Source of the DNA: a virus
Lineage: Duplodnaviria > Heunggongvirae > Uroviricota > Caudoviricetes
IMG/VR virus record: IMGVR_UViG_3300042890_003920
Length of the DNA stretch: 64,000 bases
Reading direction: 5' to 3' (one strand)
Below are positions 3,438 to 40,339 of the stretch, piece by piece (the stretch's first letter is position 1; each line of letters begins with the position of its first letter). The notes below the pieces were generated by a model, which was not told the origin of the DNA, did no database searches, and saw nothing but the letters and a program-made list of their open reading frames with translations. Position numbers and translations under genes: made by a program.

Positions 3438-3941
3438 ATGAAACACATTAAAGAATTTAATCAAATCAACGAAGGTAAAGGTGATTGGATAAGAACAATA
3501 CAAACACTTTTTGATAAATCTGACGTAGGATCTTTTTCTGGTGATGAAATGGATTTCGAAATGTTTCAGAAATGGGATAATTTATTACCATATCTTGATC
3601 AATATGGTGAAATAAATAACTCTAAGCCTTTAGGTCCTATTGAAGAAACTATTAGACATTTTGAAAATAAACAATTAAAGAAAGAATTTATTCCAATGCA
3701 AGATATTTCAAAAGAAGAGAAGGAAATCAAAAAGAGAGAAGGCACTCCAAAAGTTTATACTGCCTTCGGAGAACATGAATGGAATTTAGATAGTTATAAT
3801 AAAGAATATCAAGATGGTGTTAAAAAACTTAGAAAAGCTTGGATGAGTTTCTTAAAAGAGGCGGGTACATTTGCGGGAAAGGCTCATTTTGATATTGATA
3901 TTGAACCTGGTAGAAAAGTTATTGGAGTACCCAGAAAGTAA
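3438..3941 (+). CDS. hypothetical protein with MKHIKEFNQ N-terminus (family-A relative)
   Basis: ORF 167 aa; promoter-like aaatatatac motif upstream. Confidence 0.6.
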   Translation: MKHIKEFNQINEGKGDWIRTIQTLFDKSDVGSFSGDEMDFEMFQKWDNLLPYLDQYGEINNSKPLGPIEETIRHFENKQLKKEFIPMQDISKEEKEIKKREGTPKVYTAFGEHEWNLDSYNKEYQDGVKKLRKAWMSFLKEAGTFAGKAHFDIDIEPGRKVIGVPRK

Positions 3942-8481: not shown

Positions 8482-8790
8482 TTAGTTAAGGTTTTGTAGT
8501 TGTAGTTGTAATCTTTCGATTTGTTGAGTAATCAATCTTCTTTGAGCTTCTCTTTGAGCTAAACGAATAGAATCCCATTGTGTTGGTATTTTAGTAGATA
8601 CTTTTGTTTCTGTATCAAAGATATAAGCACTTAGTATACCACAAGATGTTGTTGTAGCTGAGAATTTCTCGATAGCTTCGTTTATAGTAATTTCACTATT
8701 GCTATCACGTGTTTCTATAATACACATATCATCCTCGGTTAAAGGGACGTTAAATCTGTTGTAAGCACTGTTTAAAACTAATCTTCTCAT
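8482..8790 (-). CDS. hypothetical protein (start moved to MRRLVLNS)
   Basis: ORF-track start is a non-ATG codon; ATG at 8788..8790 lies about 13 nt downstream of -7 box TATCTTTG (8809..8816). Confidence 0.45.
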   Translation of the reverse strand: MRRLVLNSAYNRFNVPLTEDDMCIIETRDSNSEITINEAIEKFSATTTSCGILSAYIFDTETKVSTKIPTQWDSIRLAQREAQRRLITQQIERLQLQLQNLN

Positions 8791-11022: not shown

Positions 11023-11122
11023 TAGTCAGGACAGGATTCGAACCTGTATGTAACTTTATGTTTCCACTCCGTCTATAGTTACTACGGTATACTTAGCGTC
11101 TTACCAATTCCGCCACCTGACT
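11023..11122 (-). tRNA. tRNA (class-II-like, isotype undetermined; D-arm resembles tRNA-Leu)
   Basis: 7-bp acceptor AGTCAGG/CCTGACT, D-arm GCG-GAATTGGTAAGA-CGC, T-arm ACAGG-TTCGAAT-CCTGT; about 99 nt with a non-canonical anticodon/variable region; own -7 box at 11187..11194. Confidence 0.65.
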
Positions 11123-11186
11123 AAAAATGAGAGTTCCATACTTCCGGGAAGTCACTCACAACCCACCTGCTTCTTTGTTTACTTTA

Positions 11187-12958: not shown

Positions 12959-13735
12959 ATGAAATACTGTAGAAAACAAAGTGTAAGTTCAGGAAGAACT
13001 TTACGCTATATTAAAAGTTTTAATCAAACACTTGAGAACTACTCAACTGTTGCCAATACATTTAGAGGATTACGACCATCTATTAAAAATCTTGCCATAT
13101 TAACCGCACAGAACCCACATGGTGAGCAACATTCAAATGAGTTTAACAAATCTGCGAACCAAGAACTTGAAGAGGTTCTATCTAAAGCTAAATTAGGTTA
13201 TAAAAAGGTTAAAGGTTCGTATGTTCAAAAAGAGAAATCATTTATTGTTTTTAATATACCTTATGCAGTAGCTATAGAAATTGGTACAAGATTTAAACAA
13301 GATAGTATTATCTATGGTGAGATTAACGATAAACAAAGTTATGATGATGATGAATCAATGTTATTTAAAATTATAGGAACTGATCAAAGTAAGCCAGAAG
13401 AATATAAGAAAGTTTTGGCAGAAACTAGTGTTTTTGTTAGTAGAGATAATGCGGATGATTTTTATAGTGAGATTAAAGGTAGGAAATTTATATTACCATT
13501 TTATGATGTGATTGATCAATCTGATGATCCTACGATACTTAATATAAAAAAGGATTATACTGGAAGTAAATGGAAAGGTGGTAAAGCGGAACCTACATCA
13601 ACAACAACTTATCGACTTCCTGATTGGTTATTAAAATGGCAGCAAGATCAAAGGATAAAAGAACATGAGGAAAAACATTCAATGTACAATAAATCCAAAA
13701 AACCTTTCATTAGAAAGGTAACTGGTGATAACTAA
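12959..13735 (+). CDS. hypothetical protein, 258 aa
   Basis: ORF preceded by aattttaatatatacatt motif. Confidence 0.55.
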   Translation: MKYCRKQSVSSGRTLRYIKSFNQTLENYSTVANTFRGLRPSIKNLAILTAQNPHGEQHSNEFNKSANQELEEVLSKAKLGYKKVKGSYVQKEKSFIVFNIPYAVAIEIGTRFKQDSIIYGEINDKQSYDDDESMLFKIIGTDQSKPEEYKKVLAETSVFVSRDNADDFYSEIKGRKFILPFYDVIDQSDDPTILNIKKDYTGSKWKGGKAEPTSTTTYRLPDWLLKWQQDQRIKEHEEKHSMYNKSKKPFIRKVTGDN

Positions 13736-33024: not shown

Positions 33025-34128
33025 ATGAATAAATTAGATAAACAATACACAGACTTGCTACTAGACATTTTACATAATGGTCAAGCAAAAGGTGATAGAA
33101 CCGGTACAGGAACAATCTCAGTATTCGGTAGACAGATCAGACATGATATGAAGGATGGTTTTCCTTTACTAACAACCAAAAAGATGCCATTCAAAACAAT
33201 CGTAACAGAATTGTTATGGTTTTTAAATGGTGATACTAATATAAAGTATCTAGTTGATAATGGTTGTAACATTTGGAATGGTGATGCTTATAAAAACTAT
33301 GTCACAAAATTCAAAGAGTATTGGAGTGGAAAAGGATATGATGTACCTACAATGGAAACCTTCGTCGATAGAATTAAGAATCAACAAGGATTTTCTGAAG
33401 AGAATGGTCAGCTAGGTCCAATTTACGGAGCTCAGTGGAGATCTTGGAGAGTTGGTAAGGGAATTGAAACTACATTAAAAACTGAAGATGGTGAATCTAT
33501 ATATGAGGCAGGTTCAATGTATATTGACCAAATTGCAAACCTAATCAAAGATTTAAAAACAAATCCAGATTCTAGACGATTGATGGTTTCTGCTTGGAAT
33601 GTGGGAGAATTGGAGAATATGGTTTTACCACCTTGTCATTATGGATTTCAAGTTTATACCAGAGAGTTAGATGCAGAGACTAGATATAACATCTGGTTTA
33701 ATAACAATTATGAAACAGGTATGGAAAGATTCTTTGATCCTAACAAACTACCTGATTATGATAATACATATTATATACCGACACCTACCAGAGCAATCTC
33801 ACTTATGTGGAATCAACGTTCAGTAGATACATTCTTAGGATTGCCATTTAATATAGCTTCTTATGCTCTTTTATTAGAGATTATTGCAAGAGAAGTGAAT
33901 ATGGTGCCGGATCAATTGATTGGAAATTTAGGTGATGTTCATTTATATTCTAATCATATTGAACAAGCTAAGGAACAGATTGCGAGAAAAGGATTGGATT
34001 TACCTAGTATAATTATAAATAAAGTTATGAAGAAAGCAGATGATTCATTACCTTTATACAATATAACTGACTTTAAATTAAATGATTATAAGTCACACGA
34101 AACAATTAAAGCAAAATTAAGTAATTAA
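33025..34128 (+). CDS. thyA: thymidylate synthase (ThyA, long 367-aa form)
   Basis: DRTGTGT…, LPPCHY.FQ.Y, …FLGLPFNIASYALL…, two insertions relative to 264-aa enzymes. Confidence 0.85.
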   Translation: MNKLDKQYTDLLLDILHNGQAKGDRTGTGTISVFGRQIRHDMKDGFPLLTTKKMPFKTIVTELLWFLNGDTNIKYLVDNGCNIWNGDAYKNYVTKFKEYWSGKGYDVPTMETFVDRIKNQQGFSEENGQLGPIYGAQWRSWRVGKGIETTLKTEDGESIYEAGSMYIDQIANLIKDLKTNPDSRRLMVSAWNVGELENMVLPPCHYGFQVYTRELDAETRYNIWFNNNYETGMERFFDPNKLPDYDNTYYIPTPTRAISLMWNQRSVDTFLGLPFNIASYALLLEIIAREVNMVPDQLIGNLGDVHLYSNHIEQAKEQIARKGLDLPSIIINKVMKKADDSLPLYNITDFKLNDYKSHETIKAKLSN

Positions 34129-35995: not shown

Positions 35996-36325
35996 ATGAA
36001 AAAACATTTTAGAGCGACTGAATATTTTACTATTTACGCAGCAACAGAACCAATTGAATTAGACAGTGATTTATTCCCAGAGTTTGAGGGAACAACTGAA
36101 CAGGAATTTTTTGACTACATATCAGAGAATTATAATGACTTAGCAGAGGATGAATCTTTACCAGAAGAAGTAAGAAATTCTCTTTGGACACTTATTGAAG
36201 GTGAGAAGTTTGATTACTTTAATTCATCATATAAAGGTTATGAAGGTGATATTCAAATGGGTAAACCAAATGAAACTTGGCATAAGACTGGTGGATTTGA
36301 AGTTGAACTTACAACTGGATACTAA
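35996..36325 (+). CDS. acidic family-C protein (ATEYFT.Y…EPIEL)
   Basis: paralog of 39783..40043 and 40046..40339. Confidence 0.5.
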   Translation: MKKHFRATEYFTIYAATEPIELDSDLFPEFEGTTEQEFFDYISENYNDLAEDESLPEEVRNSLWTLIEGEKFDYFNSSYKGYEGDIQMGKPNETWHKTGGFEVELTTGY

Positions 36326-36940: not shown

Positions 36941-37522
36941 ATGAAAAGAACAGATATTATAAATAAACTTGTTGTAAAATATAACTACAAATCATATTTA
37001 GAGGTTGGTACTCAAGATCCATCATCTAACTTTGATCTAATAAATATAGAACATAAGGTTTCTATTGACCCATTTCCTAGAGGTGCAGTTACTTTTGTTG
37101 GAACATCTGATGAATATTTTGATTCAATTACTAAGGATGTAAAGTATGATATTATTTTTATTGATGGTTTACATCATTCAGAACAAGTATTAAAAGATAT
37201 TGAAAATTCATTAAATCATTTATCTGATAATGGAACAATTGTTTGTCATGATTGTTTACCAACAACTGAAAAGATGCAATATAGAGAAGATCACGGTGAA
37301 GAATGGACTGGTGATGTTTGGAAAGCAATTGCCGAATTAAGAGTTGTACGAACTGATTTAGATATAAAGGTAGTAGATAGTGATTATGGTTGTGGTATAA
37401 TTAGAAGAGGTACTAATATACCATATCAAACATCTGAGGATTATAAAACATATTCTCACTTTTCATTAAATAGAAATCATTTAATGAATGTTATCTCAAC
37501 CAATGATTTATTAAAAATATGA
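36941..37522 (+). CDS. putative SAM-dependent methyltransferase (TylF/CmcI-like fold)
   Basis: …YLEVGTQDP…IIFIDGLHHSEQ…DNGTIVCHD…. Confidence 0.4.
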   Translation: MKRTDIINKLVVKYNYKSYLEVGTQDPSSNFDLINIEHKVSIDPFPRGAVTFVGTSDEYFDSITKDVKYDIIFIDGLHHSEQVLKDIENSLNHLSDNGTIVCHDCLPTTEKMQYREDHGEEWTGDVWKAIAELRVVRTDLDIKVVDSDYGCGIIRRGTNIPYQTSEDYKTYSHFSLNRNHLMNVISTNDLLKI

Positions 37523-37699: not shown

Positions 37700-38110
37700 A
37701 TGAAGTATTTAAAAAGTATTTTTGAGTCTAGGAGTGAAAAAGATCTTACTGAGTTACAAGATACTTGTGAGATGTATCTAGCTTATTTAATTGATAATGG
37801 ATTTCATGTTGAGATACAAGATTTTGATATAATAGATATAGACATTAGAAATGATTTAGATGCTAATGAGGAAGAAACTTTTAAATGGTCGGACGTAAAG
37901 GATCATGTGATACCTTTAATAACTTTATTTAAGAATGATCATTTTAGATATAAATTAAAAGAGACTGTTTTATTCTATAAGGGTAAGCCAGATGATATGG
38001 TGAGTATTTCTAATTTTAATTCTGGTAGACGCCACATAGGATTAGATGAGAATTTAGAATCAATAAAAGAAGATCAAGAAATAATTTGCTTAACAATAAG
38101 AGTTCGATAG
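37700..38110 (+). CDS. family-A protein
   Basis: MKYLKSIFES…DTCEMYLAYLIDNG…WSDVKDHVIPLI. Confidence 0.65.
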   Translation: MKYLKSIFESRSEKDLTELQDTCEMYLAYLIDNGFHVEIQDFDIIDIDIRNDLDANEEETFKWSDVKDHVIPLITLFKNDHFRYKLKETVLFYKGKPDDMVSISNFNSGRRHIGLDENLESIKEDQEIICLTIRVR

Positions 38111-38111
38111 T

Positions 38112-38558
38112 ATGAGATATTTAAGAAAATTTGAGAATTTACAGGATAGATTTACCACTGATGAATTGTCTGAAATAAGGAATAAGTGTGAGATGTATCT
38201 GGCTTATTTAGTTGATAATGGATTTGATATTGATATAGATAATACAGAAAGTACTCATAGTTGTATAGATATAACACAATCTAATACACTGGATGCTAAA
38301 CTACATTTTACTGAAACTGGTGATGGTGTATCTTGGTCAGAAATAAAGGATAATATTATTCCTTTAATTTCTTTATTTATGAAAGGTGACTTTGATTGTC
38401 AATTATTAAATATAGAATTTTTCTTTTGGAGAAAAAGACCTATACTAGTGGAAGCTGAAGATTTTGAGGATTTTATTAATGATAGACCTCATTCATTTTC
38501 ATTGAAAGATTTAGAAGGTAATGGTATATCGTGTATAACATTAGAAATAAAGAAATAA
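38112..38558 (+). CDS. family-A protein
   Basis: MRYLRKFENL…NKCEMYLAYLVDNG…WSEIKDNIIPLI. Confidence 0.65.
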   Translation: MRYLRKFENLQDRFTTDELSEIRNKCEMYLAYLVDNGFDIDIDNTESTHSCIDITQSNTLDAKLHFTETGDGVSWSEIKDNIIPLISLFMKGDFDCQLLNIEFFFWRKRPILVEAEDFEDFINDRPHSFSLKDLEGNGISCITLEIKK

Positions 38559-38560
38559 GT

Positions 38561-39031
38561 ATGAGATATTTAAAAAAATTTTTTGAGAGTTTTGAAGAAA
38601 ATGTATTACAAGACTTCTGTGAAACCCATCTAGCTTATTTGTTAGATGAAGGATATGAATTATATATTGGTGATGAACGTGGTAAGAAAACAATCAGTAT
38701 AACTATACCGAGTGATGTAAGTGATGAAGATGGTGAGTATGATACTGGTGAATTTGAATGGAATAATGTTAAAGATCATTACATAACATTTTTAACACAT
38801 TTGAATAATAAGTATAACGTTGTTCCTTATTTTGATCAAAACTCTTTTGTAGCGTACGATTGGTTTACGAGAGATGAAAAAGATGTCGTCGAATTTTTTA
38901 CTAACTCTGCCGGAGTGAAGCCAGGAGAAGAACAATATAGACATTATTATTCAGTACAAGAAGTACTTGATGATAAACCTTCAGAATTAGATAGTTGTTT
39001 ATATGAAATAACTGTAAAGGTGCAATTATAA
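38561..39031 (+). CDS. family-A protein (start MRYLKKFFES)
   Basis: family motifs; ORF-track N-extension rejected. Confidence 0.65.
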   Translation: MRYLKKFFESFEENVLQDFCETHLAYLLDEGYELYIGDERGKKTISITIPSDVSDEDGEYDTGEFEWNNVKDHYITFLTHLNNKYNVVPYFDQNSFVAYDWFTRDEKDVVEFFTNSAGVKPGEEQYRHYYSVQEVLDDKPSELDSCLYEITVKVQL

Positions 39032-39682
39032 TATTGGTTTATAAACGGTATTTACAAATACCATTTTTTCGTTACTATTGTATATTAGTTGTTTATAAGG
39101 TTCATAATTGATTGATTTCATAAAGTTATTATAATCTACTGCTCTCGTATCTATCTCTAGTACTATGATAGGTTTGTCTCTTTCTATAAGCTCTTTAGCA
39201 CCTTTTAAAGCATTAAACTCATATCCTTCGAGGTCTAAATGTATTAAATCGATTTTTTCAATAAGAAAATCATCTAATTTGATCATATCTATTCTAATAC
39301 CTTCTCCGATTTCACTTCGAGGTCCCATTTCTAATCCTGATTCATCGATATGTTTTAGACTACTTTTACAATTACTTTCACCTAAAGCTTGTTTATATAA
39401 GCTAACATTGGTTAAATTATTTAGTACTATTGTTTGTAAAGTACATTTGTGCATTAAAGGATTAGGCTCAAAAACAAATACTCGATTACAATCTTTTAGT
39501 GCTGGTAGAAAATCACCAAATCCGGAACCTGCGTGTATAACATTTCCACCAATTGATTTTATGTATTCGATTGTAGTTTCTTCGTGAACACCACCGTCTA
39601 TAATAGTTTGAGCGGTATATGTGTATTTGATTTCTTCGGGTATTACGTATACTCCGTATTTATTCTGTGCTTTTAACATCAT
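39026..39682 (-). CDS. FkbM-family methyltransferase
   Basis: …NVIHAGSGFGDF…VFVFEPNP…IHLDLEGYEFNALKGAKELI…. Confidence 0.65.
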   Translation of the reverse strand: MMLKAQNKYGVYVIPEEIKYTYTAQTIIDGGVHEETTIEYIKSIGGNVIHAGSGFGDFLPALKDCNRVFVFEPNPLMHKCTLQTIVLNNLTNVSLYKQALGESNCKSSLKHIDESGLEMGPRSEIGEGIRIDMIKLDDFLIEKIDLIHLDLEGYEFNALKGAKELIERDKPIIVLEIDTRAVDYNNFMKSINYEPYKQLIYNSNEKMVFVNTVYKPIL

Positions 39683-39690
39683 ATTATTTG

Positions 39691-39772
39691 ATATTGGGAT
39701 AGGACTCGAACCTACAACGATACAACCTTTGAAAGGATGACATGCCTTTTTGCCATTACGTACTACCCAATA
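39691..39772 (-). tRNA. tRNA-like element (perfect acceptor and T-arm; other arms non-canonical)
   Basis: acceptor TATTGGG/CCCAATA, T-arm GTAGG-TTCGAGT-CCTAT; one fold places UCA in the anticodon position. Confidence 0.45.
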
Positions 39773-39782
39773 ATTGTTCTAT

Positions 39783-40043
39783 TTAATCAGTAAGAACTTC
39801 TGTTTCATCACCAGTGATTTTGTTTTTAACAATCTCTTGATCCATTAATTCATCCCATAGTGAATAGTAGTTATCAGTATCTTCTCCTTCTTTATACATA
39901 TCAGAAGAATTCCATTTGATGTAATCTTTTGCTTCTTCTTCGGACATTCCTTTTAATTCATGGTAGTCCTCAGTATTGATTATAAGTTCATCCCTTACTA
40001 TATAAGTGGTGAAGTATTCTGTTGCTTGTGCTTTAATTTCCAT
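39783..40043 (-). CDS. acidic family-C protein
   Basis: ATEYFTTYIVRDELIINTEDYHELKGMSEEEAKDY. Confidence 0.5.
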   Translation of the reverse strand: MEIKAQATEYFTTYIVRDELIINTEDYHELKGMSEEEAKDYIKWNSSDMYKEGEDTDNYYSLWDELMDQEIVKNKITGDETEVLTD

Positions 40044-40045
40044 TA

Positions 40046-40339
40046 TTAGAACATTTCTAATTGAGCATTGATTTCTTGAGTCTCATTTGTGATTTTATCT
40101 CTACGGATATCTTGATCATTAAGTTCATCTGCCAATGAATCATACATATCTGGATTTGTTGATGGCATTTCCCATGCATTAGACTCAACATAGTCAATTG
40201 CTTCTTCTGCACTCATACCTTCCAATTCTGGATAATCTTCAATGTTTAATTCAATAGGTTCTCTAGTGATAGATGTTTCGTAATACTCAGTTGCGAATAC
40301 TGCGATTGTTTTCTGGGTTGTTTCTGTTTGTTCTGACAT
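40046..40339 (-). CDS. acidic family-C protein
   Basis: ATEYYETSITREPIELNIEDYPELEGMSAEEAIDY. Confidence 0.5.
   Translation of the reverse strand: MSEQTETTQKTIAVFATEYYETSITREPIELNIEDYPELEGMSAEEAIDYVESNAWEMPSTNPDMYDSLADELNDQDIRRDKITNETQEINAQLEMF

Follow-up and report, generated by a model that had tools for sequence, protein, structure and literature searches.

Several RNAs copy part of the shape of a tRNA and so use tRNA-processing or tRNA-binding proteins without decoding. Such mimics include the bacterial YrlA Y-RNA-like RNAs, the mascRNA of MALAT1, the 3′ tRNA-like structures (TLSs) of plant viruses and the small stable RNAs of the phage T4 tRNA cluster. The tRNA-like domain of transfer-messenger RNA (tmRNA) runs in the order acceptor 5′ strand, D-loop analogue, helix enclosing the inserted domain, T arm and acceptor 3′ strand. 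Here, we analysed a tRNA-like element at positions 39691–39772, on the minus strand, of a 64,000 nt stretch of DNA from a virus of the class Caudoviricetes (IMG/VR record IMGVR_UViG_3300042890_003920; hereafter, the window). An earlier account made from the letters alone (the sequence-only reading) had proposed that this was a tRNA-like element with a possible UCA, or opal-reading, anticodon. Our comparative analysis instead points to a structured RNA gene, derived from a tRNA and conserved among large uncultured phages, which in concept belongs with the tRNA mimics and whose topology most resembles a minimal tRNA-like domain of the tmRNA type.

The element is intergenic, lying 10 nt past the stop of the ORF (open reading frame) 39783–40043(−) and 8 nt ahead of the ATG of the FkbM-family methyltransferase gene 39026–39682(−). 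Numbered from nt 1 at 39772 to nt 82 at 39691, it reads 5′-TATTGGG TA GTAC GTAATGGCAAAAAG GCAT G TCAT CCTT TCA AAGG TT GTAT CGTT GTAGG TTCGAGT CCTAT CCCAATA T-3′. Its parts are listed below, where P2, H1 and H2 are predicted helices and labels such as L016 denote related loci.

39691..39772, minus strand: whole tRNA-like RNA gene, 81 nt plus the discriminator T at 39691, then C at 39690.
39766..39772, minus strand: 5′ strand of the acceptor stem, TATTGGG (nt 1–7), with 7/7 Watson–Crick pairs to 39692–39698.
39764..39765, minus strand: connector T8 A9, invariant across all family members.
39760..39763, minus strand: 5′ strand of putative helix P2, GTAC (nt 10–13), located where the D stem of a tRNA begins on its 5′ side; partner nt 50–53 (GTAT).
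39745..39759, minus strand: conserved block GTAATGGCAAAAAGG (nt 14–28), in which TAATGGCAAA and GG are invariant in 14 distinct sequences.
39737..39756, minus strand: putative hairpin H1, ATGGCA-AAAAGGCA-TGTCAT (nt 17–36), obtained independently by RNAalifold and by constrained minimum free energy (MFE) folding.
39726..39736, minus strand: putative hairpin H2, CCTT-TCA-AAGG (nt 37–47), which contains the 'UCA' of the sequence-only reading.
39728..39734, minus strand: the anticodon loop proposed in that reading, TTTCAAA (nt 39–45), kept in neither length (5–12 nt) nor sequence in homologues.
39720..39723, minus strand: 3′ strand of putative helix P2, GTAT (nt 50–53), covarying in the family.
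39716..39719, minus strand: linker CGTT (nt 54–57) at the tRNA variable-loop position; GT is conserved, and L016 and L088 have 3 nt here.
39699..39715, minus strand: T arm GTAGG-TTCGAGT-CCTAT (nt 58–74), one G.U plus four Watson–Crick pairs; family loop TTCGARY.
39692..39698, minus strand: 3′ strand of the acceptor stem, CCCAATA (nt 75–81).

Within the conserved block, TAATGGCA resembles a tRNA D loop with G18 G19; the 3′ strand of H1 is also readable as an Asp-like A-U-G-U-C-A-Y motif, and the 3′ half of the element includes CGTTGTAGGTTCGAGTCCTATCCCAATA and GTAGGTTCGAGYCCTAYCCCAATA. The perfect acceptor stem and the canonical T arm had been described correctly in the sequence-only reading. 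So had the lack of a clean D arm, the candidate GTAC/GCAT forming 3/4 pairs only, around a 14 nt loop, and the alternative fold AAAGG/CCTTT is present as stated. The element thus keeps the acceptor/T-arm half of a tRNA together with a D-loop-like segment, whilst a conserved inner module appears to stand in place of the 3′ strand of the D stem and the anticodon arm.

A scan of the window for a perfect 7 bp acceptor stem, a 5 bp T stem and a TTCRANN loop returned exactly two sites, 39691–39772(−) and 11023–11122(−). As first-order Markov simulations (300 runs) predict 0.023 such sites per window, the pair represents a genuine feature and not a chance match, and the claim of a second tRNA-like element here was right. 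The element also aligned at full length (model positions 1–83, 97.8 bits, E 3.8e-26) with R1, a covariance model of its family that was built from five sequences and gave unrelated tRNAs less than 28 bits.

The family comprises 18 recovered copies, representing 14 distinct sequences, from phage and metagenome contigs, all scoring 66–105 bits with R1. Its proposed signature is an acceptor, UA, P2, RTAATGGCAAA...GG...GTCA, a short hairpin, the second strand of P2, a 3–4 nt linker and a T arm, at a score of at least 66 bits with R1, and the window copy fits it. Some members (L010, L057–L062 and L074–L076) were found via neighbouring proteins and are therefore unbiased as to the RNA; the others (L016 and L082–L094) came from sequence-pattern scans of IMG/VR, and a pattern that left nt 21–50 unconstrained returned the same member set. 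L010 has an FkbM protein 86% identical to that of the window and an element ~92% identical, placed directly after a 97-aa acidic ORF and followed by different genes. The element occupies the same place as in the window in the P0022 group (L057–L062), and follows a DUF4832 gene instead in the P0029 group (L074–L076).

Other searches delimited the family. GenBank phage isolates held no close DNA relative of the locus or of the element, an IMG/VR scan with the exact 3′-half pattern gave no match, and IMG/VR loci with the same DUF4832 gene (L002–L008) showed neither downstream synteny nor the element. Among 185,579 bacterial and archaeal genomes, scanning with the 5′ motif and T loop produced 31 matches, all by chance and none with the stems. 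In a motif-only viral scan, 9/10 matches belonged to one unrelated coding family and were rejected. L009 was likewise rejected as a member: it shares the 17-mer GGGTAGTAYGTAATGGC, in a different and longer tRNA-like gene that scores 17 bits with R1, and was treated as unrelated or very distant. No family in Rfam 15 matches the element, and a full-text literature search returned no description of such a tRNA-like RNA family. We are highly confident that the element is a real member of a conserved RNA family. The proposed family is supported by covariation and has no entry in Rfam 15, and tRNA finders overlook it although it sits in phage tRNA arrays.

In the 14 distinct sequences, pairing of the acceptor stem is complete (100%) and 6/7 of its pairs are changed on both sides, the 5′ strand varying by lineage (e.g. 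TATTGGG, GTGGGTG, AGTCAAG, GGTTAGG, AACCAAG, AGTACGG and GGGTGAG). The T stem is also 100% paired, with 3/5 pairs covarying, and P2 (nt 10–13 with nt 50–53) is 96% paired, with 3/4 pairs covarying (variants GTAC/GTAT, ATAC/GTAT, TCC/GGA and TCT/AGA). None of 500 shuffled controls reached the observed values, and slid controls gave 34–45% pairing. The invariant positions are T8 A9, TAATGGCAAA, GG, GTCA, CC...GG and AGGTTCGA.

Inside this frame, the H1 core pairs T18 G19 G20 C21 with G32 T33 C34 A35 around an A-rich loop containing GG. The two closing pairs of H2 are conserved, with a C-G/G-C switch in L016, and its distal part is variable, with loops of 3–8 nt. RNAalifold, run on an independent MAFFT alignment, returned H1 and the base of H2 in addition to the acceptor and T arm. 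When the acceptor and T arm were fixed, H1 plus H2 was the MFE structure in five window-like or L074-type sequences, not in L016, and P2 lay within ~1 kcal; in L074, the changes G14A and C55U lengthen P2. We regard the P2/H1/H2 arrangement as the best-supported model of the inner fold.

The likeness to a canonical elongator tRNA (RF00005) covers the 7 bp acceptor, U8 A9, the 5 bp T stem with its TTCGARY loop, the absence of an encoded CCA, the D-loop-like TAATGGCA with GG, and the location among tRNA genes in phage arrays. Unlike such a tRNA, the element has no conserved anticodon arm or anticodon, and the 5′ strand of its 'D stem' pairs best with the strand just before the variable-loop position; neither the Rfam tRNA covariance model nor ARAGORN calls it. 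Its order of parts, with P2 enclosing an insert, is that generally known for the tRNA-like domain of tmRNA (RF00023; permuted form RF04321). However, the element is only 82 nt long, has no Rfam tmRNA match, and departs from tmRNA in each of the three features by which we judged a tmRNA-like reading, which was rejected. G3.U70 occurs in 1/14 family sequences only (L086), there are no pseudoknots, and there is no conserved tag frame, the ATG-GCA-AAA frame ending after 4 to >24 codons, or 3 to >23 when counted from GCA. A small-ORF reading (ATG GCA AAA...) was rejected because neither length nor frame is conserved. The element gave no sequence or covariance-model match to the Rfam families among the known tRNA mimics. 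YrlA, as generally understood, differs in having its ends at the opposite pole, and TLS elements are the 3′ ends of RNA genomes.

Our data are consistent with the following course of events. The element would be co-transcribed with its neighbours, or, in other phages, with the tRNA genes of an array. Intact acceptor, T-arm and elbow features, together with the place among tRNA genes, suggest that it would then be excised by RNase P and the 3′-end tRNA-processing enzymes, followed by CCA addition. In the folded RNA, P2 would close a three-way junction with the invariant H1 and the short variable H2, and a 4 nt linker would lead into the T arm. The product may accumulate as a stable tRNA-shaped RNA whose function is carried by the conserved inner module and not by an anticodon, most plausibly by binding or titrating a tRNA-recognising protein, as a mimic or decoy on a natural tRNA scaffold. 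We favour this package as a whole (a small non-decoding tRNA-like RNA, processed like a tRNA and acting as a mimic) with modest confidence, and put the mimic or scaffold mechanism, taken separately, at about even chances. A tRNA-like decoy had been one of the alternatives in the sequence-only reading, and is retained here.

Several points weigh against this interpretation. The maturation pathway and the mimic or decoy role are read from shape and context. The H1 core shows no variation at all, so covariation cannot test it, and its invariance stems in part from the member search, as the patterns required TAATGGCAAA and GTCA. A rival pairing of nt 10–13 with nt 28–31 would form a D stem like that of a tRNA and reaches 86% in the family, albeit with bulges. 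In L016 and L088 both possible partners of nt 10–13 follow the change and so suit either fold; moreover, the P2 alignment of these two loci was registered by hand with a 1 nt shift, and alignment A6 is fitted to the favoured model. There are only ~7–8 independent lineages. Close relatives in the P0018, P0041, P0057 and P0084 groups lack the element within 2.5–3 kb, and it must therefore be dispensable. Lastly, the likeness to an Asp loop and a tRNA-Asp(GTC) call by ARAGORN at lowered thresholds may leave room for some decoding role or one related to AspRS.

The alternative that survives best, although we think it unlikely, is that the element is a cis-acting processing signal ('tRNA punctuation'), at which RNase P and RNase Z would cut a polycistronic transcript to free the downstream mRNA, here that of FkbM, leaving it a short leader, the excised RNA being functionless. 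The element lies on the strand of its neighbours and tightly fills the intergenic gap, and the next start codon is 2–14 nt downstream in the window, L057, L010 and L074. The neighbours in the window, given here as context only, are as follows.

39026..39682, minus strand: downstream neighbour, FkbM-family methyltransferase (Pfam PF05050, E = 5.7e-16).
39783..40043, minus strand: upstream neighbour, 86-aa acidic protein, a paralogue of 40046–40339 and 35996–36325.

An acceptor/T-arm shape would suffice for cleavage, however, leaving the invariant inner block unexplained. Nor is the arrangement general: the next ORF is 47 nt away in L016, the downstream genes are mutually unrelated, and the neighbours in L085, L088, L091 and L093 are tRNA or tmRNA genes, not protein genes. 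In these four loci the element sits inside arrays of 11–21 canonical tRNA genes, adjoining tRNA-Trp in L088 and lying between tRNA-Ile and tRNA-Ser in L085; L093 additionally carries a canonical tRNA-Asp(GTC). In L088, a permuted (two-piece type) tmRNA gene at 3628–3819(+) (RF04321, 53.7 bits against a threshold of 47) begins 18 nt downstream of the element. The occurrence of this family inside tRNA arrays means that phage 'tRNA repertoires' include genes that are not adaptors.

The sequence-only reading had placed the element next to the start of the FkbM gene. The position is accurate, but the adjacency is not conserved in the family: FkbM is near the element only in window-like loci and L016, on which ground we rejected a linkage, and the position beside FkbM is incidental. 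All-against-all ORF clustering with Pfam annotation found no protein cluster common across lineages, and hence no conserved protein partner, and a search of the window and related loci for sites complementary to the invariant block returned only the element's own antisense strand.

A decaying, functionless tRNA pseudogene left over from a phage tRNA array is a less probable explanation still. Its dispensability is plain from phages that lack the element despite flanking ORFs 77–89% identical to those of the window. Identity to L010 (~0.92) is barely above the third-codon identity of the flanking genes (0.77–0.90), and the D-stem alternative of the window copy is weaker than that of L010. Yet stems that are fully replaced by compensatory changes across lineages around a fixed inner block are not expected of a neutral relic, all copies have perfect acceptor and T stems, and the window copy scores as a full member of the family. 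The 'degenerate tRNA' of the sequence-only reading is unlikely for the same compensatory changes.

That the element is an unusual decoding tRNA is very improbable in our view. Two forms have to be considered: an opal suppressor, with UCA in the loop UUUCAAA, and an aberrant tRNA-Asp with AUGUCAY as its anticodon loop (GUC). The location among tRNA genes would suit both. For the first, the window copy can be drawn with a 7 nt loop UUUCAAA having U33 and A37, and the metazoan-mitochondrial mode of ARAGORN, and that mode only, reports tca, in a D-armless fold. The loop is as the sequence-only reading described it, but the stem, CATCC/GGTTG, has a central T-T mismatch and forms 4/5 pairs. Across the family, the stem is 73% paired and one pair is never formed. 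The loop TTTCAAA itself is found in the window only. Relatives 92–95% identical have 8 nt loops instead (TGTCAAAA or TATCAAAA), with G or A at 'position 33'; L074 has TGTAATAA, the 5 nt loops TTAAT or TTTAT occur in L092 and L093, and another hairpin takes this place in L016 and L088, with a TAAA tetraloop in L016. Among the 13 other distinct homologues, loops range over 5–12 nt; the 'U33' position in the family is T, G or A, and TCA stands in the correct register only in the window (TAAT in L074, TTAAT in L092); UCA is not conserved.

For the Asp form, G-U-C-A is invariant in all members, and the motif A-U/G-G-U-C-A-Y that contains it resembles the loop CUGUCAC of canonical phage tRNA-Asp genes; at relaxed thresholds (-ps), ARAGORN draws another cloverleaf, a tRNA-Asp(GTC) with a long variable arm. 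Against this, the loop is flanked by no more than GG/CC, many lineages have T-T or C-T as their third pair, no member has G at nt 29 opposite C37, and T insertions adjoin the loop. L093 also has its normal tRNA-Asp, and the discriminator varies (A, U or G). The motif may reflect descent from tRNA-Asp, or mimicry of its loop. An attempt to identify a parental isotype by alignment to array tRNAs was set aside, as no parent was convincing and the scores were driven by the T arm.

Gene callers and the genetic code tell against decoding of either kind. At default settings, ARAGORN called 0 tRNAs in the whole window and none of the family members. The Rfam tRNA model at its curated threshold matched the window only at 11023–11122 (37.3 bits) and, in a 271 nt search, gave no match at the element even at E≤10; the best match among family members was partial, at 19.1 bits against a threshold of 29. 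The window thus holds no canonical tRNA gene, its tRNA-like genes being this element and 11023–11122 only, and the element has three competing tRNA folds, each below standard thresholds. Gene calling under code 11 gave 130 non-overlapping ORFs covering 90.4% of the window, compared with 126 ORFs and 89.7% under code 4. The 25 window ORFs that end in TGA gained a median of 2 codons on read-through, and the ThyA and DUF4832/4874 domains are spanned end to end by Pfam profiles under the standard code.

Treating TGA as a sense codon therefore yields no better gene calls, and the doubt that the sequence-only reading itself had voiced about genome-wide recoding was well placed. Its suppressor proposal is rejected, for lack of a conserved anticodon, of support from tRNA callers and of improved gene calls. 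Without a conserved anticodon arm, the element is not a stop-codon-reading tRNA, and we are highly confident that it is no opal suppressor. A false lead is thereby removed, as this phage has neither an opal-suppressor tRNA nor recoding of stop codons.

Finally, it is scarcely credible that the element acts at the DNA level, as an attP- or attB-like recombination site imitating part of a tRNA gene of the host: phage att sites often lie within tRNA genes, and gene content on both sides differs between the window, L010 and L074, which hints at a hot spot of recombination, but the acceptor and T-stem sequences are wholly different between lineages with pairing kept, which argues for selection on RNA and not on DNA identity; no integrase occurs in five ORFs scanned against Pfam and PHROGs (FkbM and DUF4832/4874 in the window and three in L016, other window ORFs within 3 kb being translated only) or in two Pfam-annotated gene lists; the scan of bacterial and archaeal genomes gave chance matches only, the 3′ half alone not being scanned in hosts; and these are large phages with no prophage context seen, though 13/18 loci came from viral-only or phage-gene-anchored searches. 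The attB-like site of the sequence-only reading is thus without support.

The other tRNA-like gene of the window, 11023–11122(−), belongs to a second family that includes L092 1423–1533 and ~1170–1297, L085 4714–4823(−), L093 8313–8400 and ~8570–8690, L084 3331–3428(−), L090 9150–9241 and 9470–9554, and L094 3930–4033(−). Its members share the acceptor AGTCAGG/CCTGACT, a Leu-type D arm (GCGG-AATTGGTAGA-CGC), the T arm ACAGG-TTCGAAT-CCTGT and discriminator A. The 40–70 nt between the D arm and T arm are wholly different in sequence and length, for a total of 88–125 nt. They score 32–42 bits with the Rfam tRNA model and are mostly missed by ARAGORN. Its members may be tRNAs with insertions, or a Leu-type scaffold that carries variable cargo.

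The two families are alike in having a tRNA-type acceptor, a T arm and a discriminator followed by C, and they occur on the same contigs, often adjoining (L084, L085, L090, L092, L093 and L094); some members of the element family have the acceptor AGTCAAG, one base from AGTCAGG. They differ in that the second family retains a D arm of the normal Leu type, attains the threshold of the Rfam tRNA model and is hypervariable in the middle, whereas the middle of the element is its conserved part.

A bolder proposal, which is possible but which we hold only tentatively and think rather unlikely, is that both families are natural tRNA-scaffolded effector RNAs of large freshwater phages, a modular, RNA-based means of counter-defence or host takeover hidden in tRNA arrays and unseen by tRNA finders. 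RNase P/Z processing, CCA addition and stability would all depend on the top half of the tRNA, with the anticodon arm replaced by cargo modules: one invariant module in the element family, and many different modules in the second. Host factors that such modules might bind or titrate are, for instance, immune nucleases that target tRNAs or tRNA-modifying enzymes that recognise the Asp-type UGUCA loop. Should the element indeed prove to be a stable mimic of tRNA, equipped with a dedicated inner module, engineered tRNA scaffolds would have a counterpart in nature. Such an RNA would also be a candidate for interfering, at the RNA level, with defences of the host or with its enzymes that recognise tRNAs. 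The companion family, with its Leu-type scaffold and hypervariable middle, makes modularity worth testing.

Further observations concern the tRNA-like genes and arrays. A discriminator and then C stand directly 3′ of all the tRNA and tRNA-like genes printed for the window and L082–L094 (e.g. ...CCTGACT-AC and ...CCCAATA-TC); these genes thus seem to encode the first C of CCA, the element itself having no encoded CCA. A conserved spacer, ACTCTACTTAAGCTAGTTTATGAACAGCCTTTGAG...GATGCTCTCATTAnAAA, accompanies tRNA-like genes (downstream of the element in L084 and L090, and at L092 1534–1591), with a counterpart in the window (...GGAACTCTCATTTTT) at ~11123–11140, directly ahead of 11122. This spacer may serve as a promoter or a processing signal, or may itself be a further small RNA. 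A Bacteroidota-type promoter was considered and rejected: TAnnTTTG occurs just upstream of the element in L074, but the −33/−7 consensus is not enriched in the window. The permuted tmRNA arrangement of L088, inside a tRNA array, is mirrored in L091. The array of L093 includes a near-threshold match to the freshwater-1 RNA motif at 13623–13684(+) (RF02979, 70.5 bits against 72), which fits a freshwater origin of these phages. In arrays of related phages, ARAGORN also reported tRNAs whose anticodon loops are abnormal, namely the 4-base 'agac' of L002 1392–1465(−) and the 2-base 'ct' of L093 6407–6480(+). Long tRNA-like genes with good acceptor, D and T arms, ~70 nt inserts in the anticodon region and no ARAGORN call lie at L002 2705–2826(−) and L009 11193–11316(+); the L009 insert holds GGGTAGTATGTAATGGC, the same 17-mer as in the 5′ part of the element.

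The protein-coding surroundings have features of their own. Three small acidic proteins of the window are paralogous (35996–36325(+), 39783–40043(−) and 40046–40339(−)), and tandem copies recur in related phages. The 97-aa acidic ORF has 162 relatives in metagenomes, on contigs of up to 378 kb, with 72–94% identity and none with a Pfam domain. In L063–L067, a 97-aa ORF 89% identical to that of the window forms part of the same 97-aa/86-aa ORF pair, and the element, which in the window lies within the interval 39683–39782, is missing. Before FkbM these loci have instead a 354–412-aa Ala/Gly-rich repeat protein, a 2OG-Fe(II) oxygenase and MbnP, which points to a cassette-like replacement at the position of the element. 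The window carries, within 2 kb, two methyltransferase genes on opposite strands, 36941–37522(+) (Methyltransf_24, a precomputed Pfam match) and 39026–39682(−) (FkbM/Methyltransf_21), with three paralogous ORFs of 136–166 aa (37700–39031) between them. The thymidylate synthase at 33025–34128(+) is 367 aa long and matches the 266-position Pfam profile from end to end, which implies an insertion of ~100 aa.

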